From NCBI GenBank assembly GCA_964016885.1, contig OZ024741.1, positions 344,286,001-344,350,000 on the forward strand: a DNA stretch of 64,000 nucleotides, in the 5' to 3' direction. Under the pieces are notes generated by a model. The model made no database searches, was not told the origin of the DNA, and saw only the letters and a list, made by a program, of their open reading frames with translations. This DNA is from Eledone cirrhosa. Taxonomy: Eukaryota. Below, piece after piece: positions 6,742 to 54,960 of this stretch. Every line of letters starts with the position of its first letter. Position 1 is the stretch's first letter. The position numbers were made by a program, and so were the translations under genes.

Positions 6742-7770
6742 ATAAGTTAAAACAATGAAATAAAATTCAAGTCATTAGAAATATACTTCACTGCTTTACG
6801 ATCGTTTCTAGGTGATAATAATACACCGTACGCGTATTTCGTTATCGATCTATGTAGGGTTAGTTACAAAATATCAAATAATGAATATATTTACCTACAT
6901 GTATATCATCAGCCGTTGTCAAAAACAATGAAAATTTTATTGAAAATCAATAGTAAATTGAGTTCTATGACCTTATTTGGAGGTAGCTGAAGAACAAACC
7001 AATGAAATGTTTTTTTGCCATATGATGTTAAGATGAAATATAACTCACTTTAGTTGAGGTCATGACCCTTTGAAAGGAATGGTTGAATAGTGTTAAAAAT
7101 AGAATTACTATAAATAACCTATGAATAAAAAGGAATTGTTATATTGATAGTGGAATGTAGATGGTGGAGTGAAGTTTAAAAAGGAATGTAAAAATTAAAT
7201 GTTGAGTTGTGTTGTATGGAATTTTTAGGTGAATATAAATAAGTAAATACAAAATATACAGAAATAACTAGGATAAATATAGATAGGTAAAGTAATGGTC
7301 ATAACTAGGAATGATAGTATATTAAAAGATGAAAATTATAATAAGATAATAAAATATAATAATATAATAATATAATATAATGTAATATAATATAGTACAG
7401 TATGGTACATTGTATATAGTATAATATAGCGTATGATGCATCATAAAATATAAAATAGTAAATATTTTCAAGTGAGTCTATGTATAAGTAATCAAACTCA
7501 GATAAATGCATGTTGACATATAGTCAAAATGCATAATTTTCTTATAATTTTCTTAGATCACAAAAGTAAATAAAATTTTCATTGCTTTTGACAACGGCTG
7601 ATGATATACATGTAGGTAAATATATTCATTATTTGATATTTTGAAACTAACCCTACATAGATCGATAACGAAATATGCGTACGATGTATTATTATCACCT
7701 AGAAACGATCGTAAAGCAGTGAAGTATATTTCTAATGACTTGAATTTTAATTTCATTGTGTTAACTTATA
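6742..7770. mobile_element. Inverted-repeat element (about 200 bp arms, AT-rich spacer) with an HHR in each arm
   Basis: 6742-6940 is the reverse complement of 7571-7770. Confidence 0.85.
7581..7720 (+). ncRNA. Type I hammerhead ribozyme, U3-A8 core, long stem II (mirror copy 6790-6929 on -)
   Basis: ATTGCTT-TTGACAA-[about 106 nt helix II]-GAAA-CGATCG-TA-AAGCAGT; 7 bp stem I, palindromic stem III. Confidence 0.75.
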
Positions 7771-7774
7771 TATA

Positions 7775-7932
7775 TATAGAAATGGCTTCTACAGGACTAC
7801 AACTATTTCATTCGGGAGAAATTATCAGGGCTTCCTGATGATTTCTCTCGAAATATTCATTTATTAAATATTTATTCTCTGCTATATATTGAGTACTTTA
7901 CTTACTGTGGTTACCCCCGATTGCACCAGTGA
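7775..7932. mobile_element. HHR mini-element family A (degenerate palindrome)
   Basis: Homologous to 17790-17986, 45464-45655 and 46778-46980. Confidence 0.75.
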
Positions 7933-8448
7933 TAAACTATATATATACCTTGATTAAATCTTAACCATTTAACATCTCAGGGTATGTCATGTAACATTAT
8001 ATTTTATGTGAAAAGCAGTTTCTATGAAATTCACATTGTAGCCACCATAAACTTCATAGAAACTGCTTTTCATACCCAGGCATCTCTGTCTGCTTAATAT
8101 GCTTTTATACCTGTATTGTATTGTGATACCTTTGCCATACTGTGATATATATGCTTAGTACCATTGCTTGTTTCTTACCTGGTTATTCTGTACATGCCTA
8201 ATACCTCTGCACTCTTTCTATACGTTTGCATATGTACCGTTAATGTCCTCATTTTGCGAGTAACTTTCTTCTTTACTTCCTCTATAATTGTTGTATTATT
8301 CTTTCATAATCTTTGTCGCACCCACTGATACTGACTACATCATCTTCACTCTTTAAATATGACACTGTTAATGACAACACTAACATCTACGTATCTTTTC
8401 AATTGTTCTGTGGAATAGGAGGTTAATTATATGTCTAAACTTTGCTAG

Positions 8449-8495
8449 TGCTCCGATGATATCAAACGAAAGTTTGGAAGAAACGAATGTCAGCA
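8449..8495 (+). ncRNA. Hammerhead-like motif with CCGATGA core
   Basis: TGCT-CCGATGA-(TCAAAC GAAA GTTTGG)-GAAAC-GAAT-GTC-AGCA. Confidence 0.6.
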
Positions 8496-8649
8496 ATAAA
8501 ATGTTTTGAACATAATTTTGATTATTCTGTAATATATATATATATATATATATATATATATATATATATATATATATATATATATATTAGAAAGTGAGGT
8601 TTTTTTTTACAAAATGAAAAATAACCGAGGTGTCCTACACGAGTGGAAG

Positions 8650-8972
8650 TATAAAGAAAAAGGGATGAAATCGAAAATGCAACTGAAGTCTTATTTTTTA
8701 TTTTTTATTTTTTAAATATATATATTTATTTGGTTCCTTTACCGGTTTCGCAGTTCTTCTGCTTTTCAAAAGGTGAGTTGAGATGGAGGGTCTGTGGTTT
8801 TTCTCACATGTGAGAAAAACCACAGACCCTCCATCTCAACTCACCTTTTGAAAAGCAGAAGAACTGCGAAACCGGTAAAGGAACCAAATAAATATATATA
8901 TTTAAAAAATAAAAAAAAAAAAAAAAAATAAGACTTCAGTTGCATTTTCGATTTCATCCCTTTTTCTTTATA
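8650..8972. mobile_element. Near-perfect 320 bp palindrome, HHR family B
   Basis: Centre at 8808/8809 (CACATGTG); followed by (TA)n. Confidence 0.9.
8844..8881 (+). ncRNA. Minimal hammerhead, U3-A8 core (mirror 8736-8773 on -)
   Basis: CCTT-TTGAAAA-GCAG aagaa CTGC-GAAA-CCGG-TA-AAGG. Confidence 0.75.
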
Positions 8973-51672: not shown

Positions 51673-52083
51673 CCAGTAAAAAGTAAAATCTCAAATAGTA
51701 TCTGAGATATGGTATTTTATAATCAGAGAAAGATTTTACGCTCACCCTATATGTGTGTGTGGGGGGGGCGTGTGTGTGTGTGTGTGTGAGTGTGTGCATA
51801 GAACAATGAAAACAAGACAGATGTTAGACATATGTAGTTAATTAACAATGAACTAATTAACTACCTACGTCCGACTTCTGTCTCTTTTTCATTGTATATA
51901 CCTATATATGTGTGTGTGTGTTTCTGTGTTTGCGTGTGGGGAGGGGTATATATATATATATATATATATATATATATATATATATATATATATATATATA
52001 TATATATATATATATATATATATATAGAGAGAGAGAGAGAGAGAGAGAGAGAGAGAGAGAGAGGTAGTTCCACAACAGTTAAT

Positions 52084-52220
52084 TCACCATTTCTGAGAAC
52101 AATTTGTTTCACCTTAGACGGATAATCAGCTCGATTTAAATAAGATTATACGCAAGAATCTCATTTAATCCTAGCTGATGATCCGTCTAAGATGAAATAA
52201 GTTGTTCCCGGAAATGGTGA
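52084..52220. mobile_element. Small inverted pair of decayed HHRs
   Basis: On -: GAG-CTGATTA-tCC..GGt-GAAACAAATTGTT-CTC; on +: CTGATGA..GAAATAAGTTGTT. Confidence 0.6.
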
Positions 52221-52767
52221 TGGAACTAACCCTACGAAACTTGTCCCATGGACTGAGAGGCCTACTACTACAGATATAACCCACCAGTTTTCTACTATAT
52301 ATATATTATGAAGTGAGATGACAGGAGGCCAAATATGTTGAATTTCAGTGGTCAGGTTGCGTAAGAACCTGGTTTCCTCATCAAGTGTAAATTGCGTAAT
52401 AGAGGTATACCAACGTATATATATATATATATATATATATATATATATATATATATATATATTCATTTATTTATTTATTTATTTATTTATTTAGGTTTGT
52501 TGGTTCACCACTGGATAGAACTGGTCATTCCATATGGTCAACCTCGATGTAATATTATGGAGAGCACAATATATATATATATATATATATATATATATAT
52601 ATATATATATATGTGTGTGTGTGTGTGTGTGTGTGTGTGTGTGTGTGTGTGTGTGTGTGTGTGTGTGTGTGTATAACCTTGTATTCTCCAACTGCACCTT
52701 GATCTATATTGTATGTCCCCTGTATTTTGATTTCTTAAATATGTTCTTATGTACTTCCTTTTTACTC

Positions 52768-52910
52768 AAACCCCATAGTGGTGCCTGGCTCCATGCCCTG
52801 CCCCCCTTCTCCACTGGCACGCAGCTAGACAACCATAGCCTGCGCATCGGCGTTTCTCTGATTCTCTGAGGCTCGGCCTCCGGATCTGCCAGCCACACCA
52901 ATGTCGCTGA
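52768..52910 (+). pseudogene. CRE-clade non-LTR retrotransposon fragment
   Basis: PHSGAWLHALP..TQLDNHSLRIGVSL then, after a frameshift, RLGLRICQPHQCR. Confidence 0.6.
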
Positions 52911-53276
52911 CAAATTGTTCCCAGTGAAAAATAGTTTAATTGGGAATAAGTAAAAATTAGTAATAAGTATTGGTTAGTATTCATTTTTGGTTTTAAGTTT
53001 TTACCGGTTGCGCATTTCTAATGCTTTTCAAAAATAATTTTGAGATAGAGCGCCCGTGATGTTTGCTTATTCCTAATTAAACTATTTTTCACTGGGAACA
53101 ATTTGTCAGCATTTTCTTTTCCTTTTACCAATATATCATAACTCGTGTGTTACACCTCTATTCTTTTAAATATATATATATATATATATATATATATATA
53201 TATATATATATATATATATATATATATATATATATATATATATATATACCTCTATTCTTTTAAATATATATATATA

Positions 53277-54960
53277 CAATGATATTAAATAAATGGAAAC
53301 TATATTTATAAAACCATATTTATTCTATTATATATATTTCAAGGGTTCCAAAAAACTTTGGTACGCTTTCATCAGATAAAATACAATGAGTCTTTTATAA
53401 ATTTTGACGTAGCTAAGGAAATCATACCTTATCAGTTGAATTTTCTTGGGTAGTGAGATTAAAGGACGGATATTTCAAACTTATGGATGAATATGCAAAT
53501 GAATATGTAAATAAGGTTGAGTTATATGATTGAAAAAACGTTATTTTAAACGCTATGGAAAGTTTAGATATATAATAATAAGAGACAAAAAAAGAAGAAA
53601 GAAAAAAGAAAAGGAAATATAAGAAGAAGGAAAAGGAAGACCACTTATAACGTTAATTTGTGAGAAATATATTCGAATATTTATCTATATTATGTATATA
53701 TTTATATGGAGAATTATGTTTGTAAGTAAATATCACAATCACTCTTTCAAAAGATCTTATAAAAAATATTCTACTCCCCACTCACATCTTATATGGAACT
53801 TAAAAAGCAAGAATATAGACTGCGCAATATCTTGGAAAACGATATCAAAAGCACCTGCGTACCGAAACACGGCTTTATCAAGATTCTGTAAATTGTGTAT
53901 TGAAGAAATGTTTTATATAATTAACTCTCAAAAGTCTATTAATCTCAGAACAGAGTTATTTACTTCCTGCAGACATCGCCAAAATTCTACATTCAGAAAT
54001 ATATGTAACGTTTAATATACTTATAATATTCCTATTAATCTCCAAAATGATCCTATCTGCTTTAACAATTTATATTTTTAATATATTAATATCTCTAAAT
54101 CATAATATCTCTAATATTTGTAGTACTTTCACCTTTTAGAAAAAAAATATATTTATTTATATGTGTATAGATATTAATTTAAAACATTCTCAATTTTAAC
54201 TACATATATTTACATAAAATACAAAATCAACTTCCCTCGTAACTCATTAAGAACAACCATATAAAACTTGAACTACCTATTTATTTATTTATTTAAAACT
54301 TAAAACGCAAAATGAACCGCCCTCGTAACTCATATTATAAACAACTAATAATTGCAAATTATCCTTTTAATAAAATTACATATCCTATTATTAAAATATA
54401 TATAGATATTTATATATTTAACCCACTACAATATAAAAGATAAATACTTACAAACATAATTCTCCATATAAATATATACATAATATAGATAAATGTTCGA
54501 ATGTATTTCCCCCAAATTAACGTTATAAGTGGTCCTCCTTTTCCTTTTCATTCTTCTTATTTTTTCTTTTCTTTTTTTCTTTCTTCTTTCTTTGTCTCTT
54601 ATTATTATATATCTAAACTTTCCATAGCGTTTAAAATAACGGTTTTTCAATCATATAACTCAACCTTATTTACATATTCATTTGCATATTCATCCATAAG
54701 TTTGAAATATCCGTCCTTTAATCTCACTACCCAAGAAAATTCAACTGATAAGGTATGATTTCCTTGGCTACGTCAAAATTTAAAAAATACTCTTTGTATT
54801 TTATCTGATGAAAGCGTACCAACGTTTTTTGGTACCCTTGAAATATATATAATAGAATAAATATGGTTTTATAAATATAGTTTCCATTTATTTAATGTCA
54901 TTGAATATTTACTCCAGAAATCTGTCGTGTGCTCTGAATCAGTTATAAACATTTATATTT
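53277..54960 (+). mobile_element. PLE 3' remnant (GIY-YIG C-terminus 53732-54015) with an inverted 5' copy of its 3' end
   Basis: Arms about 53277-53720 / 54440-54903; HSFK..LIWNLK..ISWK..CKLCIEE..CRH. Confidence 0.85.
54799..54857 (+). ncRNA. Hammerhead family F (mirror 53323-53381 on -)
   Basis: TTTTAT-CTGATGA-AAGcGTACCAA..TTGGTACcCTT-GAAA-TATATA-TA-ATAGAA. Confidence 0.85.

Follow-up and report, generated by a model that had tools for sequence, protein, structure and literature searches.

In Penelope-like elements (PLEs), the head-to-head arrangement is the one most often observed (Arkhipova 2013, PMC3846280), and Craig 2021 (PMC8557442) describes a 5'-truncated copy lying inverted at the 5' end, the tail frequently being at one end alone; the origin of the inverted repeats and of the one-sided tail is an open question in the latter paper. 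A transcription start inside the pseudo-long terminal repeat (pLTR) has been published for Penelope (PMC8557442, PMC2377424). The Anolis PLE Poseidon PAc cuts and extends both target strands in vitro, starts reverse transcription at two adjacent internal sites which bound the tail, and can dispense with hammerhead cleavage (Frangieh et al. 2024, PMC11167929). In L1 twin priming, the two sides of a break prime on two regions of the RNA and an inversion results (Ostertag and Kazazian 2001, via PMC2246262). These and later statements on published systems refer to parts of the cited sources. Here we describe inverted pairs of hammerhead ribozyme motifs in a stretch of 64,000 nt from Eledone cirrhosa (contig OZ024741.1, positions 344,286,001 to 344,350,000; called the window), which has 34% GC and 181 (TA)n tracts and belongs to an assembly of 3.0 Gb. 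Judged by their motifs, the pairs are 5'-truncated insertions of Hydra-clade PLEs and of related hammerhead repeats in (TA)n.

The outward-facing pairs are genuine and their pattern is valid throughout the sampled genome. They are insertions of a kind already known, and the new rules in their anatomy favour twin priming. The anatomy consists of a constant polarity, outer ends of unequal length (one long, one short), an inner boundary that is fixed for each family, independent junctions and templated fillers. We propose, with a probability of roughly 0.6, that twin priming produces these insertions: reverse transcription would begin at two sites on a single capped sense RNA, run off at the 5' end of that RNA and be followed by end-joining of the products.

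Orientation was counted in 80 stretches of 10 kb drawn at random (seeded) from 14 large contigs and in three fixed stretches (83 x 10 kb, 830 kb in total), in which 189 hammerhead segments could be oriented, 92 of them on the plus strand. Families are given our own letters A to H, and position 0 in family coordinates is the first base (C3) of the hammerhead core. When same-family pairs on opposite strands, at most 5 kb apart and with no TA tract of at least 12 nt between them, were collected, 30/30 were head-to-head and none was tail-to-tail (27 adjacent; p = 2e-9). With a TA tract between the members, nine pairs were head-to-head and two tail-to-tail, and both of the latter are explained, one by a hairpin inside one tail (L128) and the other by two separate insertions across TA (L167). 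Close opposite-strand pairs of segments coding for reverse transcriptase (RT) or endonuclease (EN) were head-to-head in 3/3 cases. The first-pass annotation, made on the window alone, had proposed such a tally across the genome, and the orientations proved far from equal. Its statement that both junctions are element 3' ends also holds, as the hammerhead lies near the 3' end on the coding strand both in our full-length copy L001 and in published Hydra PLEs (PMC8557442, supplement rows). Its suggestion that the pairs extend the known inverted pLTR was overstated for polarity, which is already found in Arkhipova 2013 and Craig 2021 and is therefore not new as a headline.

The sample contained 31 adjacent pairs per 830 kb, or about 37 per Mb, which scales to roughly 110,000 in the genome, and 62 of the 189 hammerhead segments (about a third) lie within hairpins. 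Among different-family neighbours across TA, 29 were tail-to-tail and 13 head-to-head, an excess that is expected next to palindromes. These 29 cases show what independent hits in one TA tract produce, namely tail-to-tail pairs across TA and not TA-free head-to-head joints, so that two hits or a rearrangement after insertion are scarcely probable as the source of the palindromes. The same low rating applies to a unit copied whole, like a miniature inverted-repeat transposable element: four family B loci have an identical 1-nt centre, though the query contained it, whereas centres vary between loci, the tail changes sides, and a constant centre with symmetric ends was not found.

An assembly or read fold-back artefact was also considered, because 7/31 sampled pairs have 100% identical hammerhead segments. 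We give it almost no credence, since most arms differ (83-99% identity), the ends are asymmetric in a family-specific way, the polarity is one-sided and fillers are present. In addition, the TA junction of the short end is visible in short-read contigs, those of one sample having TA loose ends at the family E short end, and an opposite-strand joint is present in one contig of a different sample. When contigs and restriction-site-associated DNA reads were aligned to window positions 29010-30000, none spanned the palindrome.

In the window, the first-pass annotation had listed 12 inverted pairs, each with the hammerhead on the minus strand in the left arm and on the plus strand in the right arm. 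All 12 were recovered; their arms are 84-100% complementary and separated by 0-704 nt, and the polarity is true of 12/12 (10 by our scanner or by homology, two partly or wholly by eye). They are listed here together with three further minus-left/plus-right pairs (17790/17847, 44415/44466 and 10141-10294) and with related features.

6741..7770, head-to-head pair; hammerheads 6797-6922 (minus) and 7588-7713 (plus) with long stem II and U3-A8 core; an extra 134 nt to TA on the left only
7784..7945, degenerate pair resembling family B; tail on the right, where the arm is partly deleted
8588..8968, head-to-head pair with zero spacer; U3-A8 hammerheads 8740-8769 (minus) and 8848-8877 (plus); 62-nt tail on the left only
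9029..9620, head-to-head pair 9146/9510; arms 95%, tail on the left
11631..12001, near-perfect palindrome of family F; both ends short, centre is the element's own short palindrome; a fold-back-like exception
12253..12756, family G pair; the left end is long and the right end short, with the short arm extending further 5'
17789..17916, additional head-to-head pair; tail on the right
28975..30004, family E pair; hammerheads 29317-29394 (minus) and 29616-29693 (plus); elsewhere a retrozyme-like tandem unit of about 659 nt
32810..33182, family H pair (a tandem-unit family); hammerheads 32940-32970 (minus) and 33022-33052 (plus)
44415..44530, additional head-to-head pair; tail on the right
45455..45655, family-B-related pair; 67-nt tail on the left
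46773..46978, family B pair; hammerheads 46866-46904 (minus) and 46915-46953 (plus); neither arm extends past the 5' strand of stem I; left end with a 66-nt tail
51027..51675, minus then plus, head-to-head pair coding for PLE RT; a polarity check independent of hammerheads
52084..52220, degenerate pair; arms 84%, the weakest hammerhead call
53277..54964, family A (Hydra-clade PLE) pair; hammerheads 53329-53375 (minus) and 54805-54851 (plus); short end left, tailed end right (cut at +159)
53734..54073, plus strand, broken GIY-YIG C-terminus (KAPAY, CxxC, CxH); same strand as the right hammerhead

Both arms were recognised by the scanner in 6790/7581, 8736/8844 (score 12), 11677/11839, 29312/29611, 32935/33017, 46861/46911 and 53323/54799. 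For 12437/12656 the right arm was found by the scanner and the left arm by homology to scanner matches, and the same homology typed 9146/9510, 45542/45592 and the left arm of 7784. The degenerate pairs 7784/7829 and 52095/52170 were judged by eye. A one-sided tail is seen in 9/12 pairs. The only same-family tail-to-tail neighbours in the window (45584 plus, 46826 minus) are two separate insertions lying across 1.2 kb and a 48-nt TA tract. The spacer of 0 to about 700 bp given in the first-pass annotation agrees with the range found, but some of it is the longer arm's own upstream sequence and not foreign DNA; inside the 53323/54799 spacer, 53734-54073 encodes an endonuclease C-terminus on the plus strand. 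More inverted pairs lie at 9923-10707, 23291-25446, 24136-25258 and 52906-53110, and no hammerhead was called in their arms.

The outer ends follow a stricter rule. Only inverted insertions with both ends readable were typed. The sets consisted of 35 family A loci and the window (13 loci solo or unresolved), 22 new family A loci (three ends cut or interrupted), 23 loci of family B, 30 of family G and 27 of family E, and a second family B set of 29 loci was picked by its tail. Each family examined has two fixed TA ends (A +98/+192, B about +58/+132, G +103/+249, E +357/about +450); family F likewise shows a short end (+160) besides a longer form. Of 85 typed inverted insertions, 82 paired a long (tailed) end with a short one (p = 3e-21 against 50:50): 23/24 and 14/14 in the two family A sets, 16/16 in B, 14/14 in G and 15/17 in E. 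In the tail-selected B set, 17 loci had a directly joined partner and 17/17 partners were short. As a separate observation, a few short-end bases are followed by a jump elsewhere in the element at L073 (about 1393), L009 (about 4990) and window 29973-30004, which look like template slips just after priming.

The inner ends were compared in 85 non-tandem pairs (families A, G and both B sets). They bear on the view that a single cDNA starting from the tail folds back close to the 5' end of the RNA, extends along itself as far as the short end and is then cut and joined, with asymmetric centres produced by later deletion. A fold-back copy must sit inside the first arm, so the tailed arm should extend furthest 5'. 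The short arm instead reached at least 10 nt further 5' in 26/85 pairs, often exactly to the family boundary, and the long arm reached further in 15; L001 was left out of the 26 because it carries a second tail copy. Long arms hardly longer than the tail were found in L001, L282, L283b, L218 and L226. The two arms of young B copies stop at one and the same boundary and are separated by a filler, so no loop remains. Such a fold-back would account for the polarity, for shared rare alleles and for one tail per insertion, and several junctions do lie on self-complementary words (L059b, L032 and L034), yet we regard it as unlikely for the insertions in general. The palindrome at 11631-12001, whose two short arms are identical and whose centre is a palindrome internal to the element, is probably either a true fold-back or an artefact. 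The first-pass annotation had offered priming at both ends or cDNA fold-back; priming at both ends fits most insertions, and fold-back suits only a minority such as this one. It had overlooked the long/short end rule, the fixed inner boundary and the junction fillers, the features which discriminate between mechanisms.

Inner ends are fixed within families. In family B, 24/37 arms end at -6 to -4 from the core C3, and a TATA box is found 29 nt upstream of -6. In family A the arms show an edge at -81, on an A that follows a pyrimidine. Just before the boundary, a non-genomic G is present in 7/8 A arms and 8/9 B arms, the A count excluding L017, whose sequence continues upstream. In the 22 new A loci the G was found in 4/11 (p = 0.16 alone; pooled 11/19, p = 3e-4). 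In other retroelements, cap copying is known to add an extra G. Our literature search found no paper on a G from cap copying.

These inner ends bear also on the published explanation of the same polarity (PMC3846280), in which an antisense transcript primes itself and forms a head-to-head hairpin before integration (Arkhipova 2013). Some junction palindromes would suit it, but the inner ends pile up at a start-like site of the sense strand below a TATA-like box and not at hairpins, arms are often non-nested, and priming in vitro uses target DNA and sense RNA (PMC11167929), so that we consider it very improbable here. Hammerhead cleavage was also tried as the main source of inner ends and rejected; a few arms begin near the cut site (L264 and L019), ambiguously.

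Sister arms in two families point to a shared template. In family E they differ at 1/15 polymorphic site-pairs compared with 7.1 expected and have 13 shared rare alleles, and in family A there are 7 shared rare alleles and 10 sites with both arms minor; 12/18 of the family A differences fall on site +99 and were discounted as an end artefact. Long and short ends, non-nested arms and shared alleles are most simply accounted for by two primers on one RNA. Fillers of at least 6 nt occur in 7/17 B junctions and hold 6-16-nt exact copies of junction-proximal sequence, counted without a shuffle baseline. Templated junction fillers are a pattern known for polymerase theta joining. At L030 (about 1330-1500) and in the L253 flanks, host DNA occurs as an inverted copy on both sides of the TA tract beside the insertion; capture or fold-back of target DNA and insertion into an older hairpin are suggested alternatives.

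In the proposed course of events, a double-strand cut would be made in (TA)n, and both target sides would prime on a single sense RNA, using the long (tail) start on one side and the short start on the other. Each of the two start sites on an RNA may be usable only once, which would give the long and short ends. Both cDNAs would run toward the probably capped 5' end of the RNA, one probably being displaced by the other where the arms overlap. The inner boundary may be the pLTR transcription start, in which case tiny palindromes would result from priming near the transcript 5' end. The two cDNAs would finally be joined in the middle by host alternative end-joining. Hammerhead cleavage would be unnecessary for this route.

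Several observations weigh against twin priming on one capped RNA. The end-type counts are manual and were drawn from best-scoring matches, which biases them to young copies, and exceptions to the end rule exist (L009, L096 and window 11631-12001 with two short ends, and L094 with two long ends). Later deletion at palindrome centres could mimic non-nested arms. At the inner boundary, the 14 arms at -81 in the new family A loci were preceded by T in 7, G in 4 and C in 3. The family B G could derive from a 2-nt snap-back on the stem I complement, and from its sequence the B boundary could be a YAG-like splice acceptor; in Drosophila Penelope the intron end maps to helix I (PMC4209133). Gene conversion could mimic shared alleles, and sister arms in families B and G resemble each other no more than unrelated arms do. 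A G/A difference at -5 in three B pairs speaks against one template, although the query that found these loci had selected the A allele. A two-template rule drawn from this difference was dropped, as the tail-selected set shows that G is common and the first query had selected A.

The same three pairs would fit priming of both ends on two separate RNAs transcribed from one source locus, perhaps within a protein dimer such as that predicted for the Anolis protein (PMC11167929). Strand displacement would then be unnecessary, but the 82/85 insertions with long and short ends stay unexplained unless the halves of the complex are fixed to different sites, and long arms that consist of the tail only and end close to the short start are what a block on one RNA would leave. 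This makes two RNAs quite improbable, and priming of both cDNAs on one RNA is preferred.

A wider claim can be joined to twin priming, and we rate it at somewhat less than an even chance. The tail and the inverted pLTR would be products of one event, and twin priming would be the default PLE route, with a dimer using two fixed starts on one capped RNA, one for each chromosome end, followed by host end-joining. The approximately 100,000 small hammerhead palindromes would be seeded by priming near the transcript 5' end, and retrozyme-like repeats would use the same route. No two-primer model and no cap-G model for PLEs turned up in a literature search, which did not extend to older subscription papers or to the Anolis supplements.

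The identity of the elements was read from their motifs. The full-length family A copy L001 carries two hammerheads at a distance of 3522 nt, and both of these and the RT open reading frame (ORF) are on the plus (coding) strand. L001 and L063 show RT motifs and then a GIY-YIG-like segment, in that order, in copies that are both broken, and both carry SDKT (DKT), a CxCx5C linker, KAPAY, CxxC and CxH. L001 also has RLRWR, an RWK-type motif, in another frame past a break. A loose pattern for the CCHH endonuclease motif had no match in L001 or L063 but matched two other window fragments at the CxxC region. Family A has a sense-strand hammerhead in the pLTR and a (TA)n target, and the set of DKT, RWR-type, CxCx5C, CxxC and CxH motifs is a mark of the Hydra clade (PMC8557442, section 11 and supplement rows). 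By this motif set, family A is identified as a Hydra-clade PLE with C-terminal endonuclease (EN+). As in EN+ PLE insertion units, an inverted 5'-truncated copy at the 5' end and a tail at one end were found; target-site duplications are unreadable because the flanks are (TA)n. No ORF was found in family B within up to about 1 kb of shared upstream sequence. Family E occurs as partial tandems of about 659 nt and family H as tandem units, with no ORF noticed in their units and none of at least 120 aa over the E copy of the window. For one tail, there were 765 candidate copies, and the 40 scored were all 100% identical; very young copies are evidently abundant in the genome. Other PLE RT/EN fragments lie at window 27044-28226, 31743-32171, 42792-43697 and 50119-51027, two of them with the CxCx5C linker. 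In L168 (2273-9566), a tandem array with a hammerhead unit of about 556 nt gave 13 scanner matches on one strand and resembles a retrozyme-like satellite.

When our own type I hammerhead scanner was applied to the window, 16 motifs scored at least 13 compared with 0.0 per shuffle (5 shuffles), and in 800 kb there were 84 matches compared with 1 in shuffled sequence. With the core term removed from the score, the 3-8 pair was CG in 76, UA in 8, UG in 5 and CA in 5 (2, 8, 1 and 2 in three shuffles). The core, stems I and II, a short or palindromic stem III and the 3-8 pairing of type I hammerheads were all found, and the motifs are predicted as hammerheads by this core and stem pattern rather than by cleavage. 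Rfam gave no hammerhead at the gathering cut-off over the whole window, nor at E<=10 in a 12-kb part of it, and Pfam had no match in five PLE fragments, so that the identity of element and hammerhead rests on the motifs. As monomers, 8/11 motifs fold no better than shuffles (z above -1.3); according to Cervera and de la Pena, such motifs function as dimers with weak cleavage (PMC4209133). U3-A8 replaces C3-G8 in the core across whole families (window 7588-7713 and 8848-8877; L122 and L155). Upstream of the family B core (L243/L039), the first six bases of the putative transcript equal hammerhead stem I, so the RNA would start with the ribozyme.

The window also contains a broken Helitron-like Rep/helicase on the minus strand at 58289-61500 (Pfam PIF1, E 6e-51 for 59176-61080) and a C-terminal RT fragment of long interspersed nuclear element type at 35900-37300 (RVT_1 below cut-off) with C2H2 zinc fingers. 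A repeat family of about 185 nt has about 13 copies in both orientations (3290-6204, 10746-11380, 17491-17720, 22795-23284, 28673-28870, 34579-34780 and 41769-42141). Outside the window, L268 (about 210-1130) has between TA tracts a fragment which, from its translation, we take to be of a Mariner-like transposase.

The end rule, the non-nested arms and the fixed inner boundary give sharp predictions for the existing in vitro PLE system. Hammerheads borne in hairpins are also a likely source of double-stranded RNA and of assembly trouble.

Among known systems, the Hydra-clade EN+ PLEs (Craig et al. 2021, PMC8557442) resemble family A in RWR, DKT, CxCx5C, a C-terminal GIY-YIG-like domain, CxxC, CxH, the (TA)n target and a sense hammerhead near the 3' end, and Penelope-13_HM carries, according to its annotation, an inverted copy at the 5' end that is likewise 5'-truncated (PMC8557442, supplement). 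The family A unit is 3.5 kb compared with usually <3 kb in the Hydra clade, and tails are 60-150 nt here compared with 30-40 nt there (PMC8557442); the end rule and the inner boundary are not tallied in the sections of that paper covered. Penelope of Adineta vaga and Drosophila virilis (PMC3846280, PMC2377424) is alike in the head-to-head copy, the tail on one inverted pLTR and the start inside the pLTR. Its structure is explained by antisense self-priming, whereas the anatomy here points to two target-primed sense cDNAs, and the pair density (about 37 adjacent pairs per sampled Mb) is far higher here.

Anolis Poseidon PAc extends two strands and has two starts bounding the tail, as proposed for Eledone, but belongs to another clade, and the covered parts of the paper draw no link from the two starts to inverted arms (PMC11167929). 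As in L1 twin priming (PMC2246262), two sides of a break would use one RNA, as read from the genomic anatomy. Unlike in L1, the starts would be fixed sites 60-150 nt apart and the arms overlap, which gives palindromes. In L1 twin priming the arms mostly cover different parts of the element, and priming needs poly(A) or T-rich pairing. Non-LTR retrozymes (bioRxiv 10.64898/2026.07.22.740005; PMC11722881) are similar to families E and H in their tandem hammerhead units with no ORF noticed. They are described as likely rolling-circle elements, whereas family E has head-to-head long and short ends like a coding PLE, which points to the PLE integration route.

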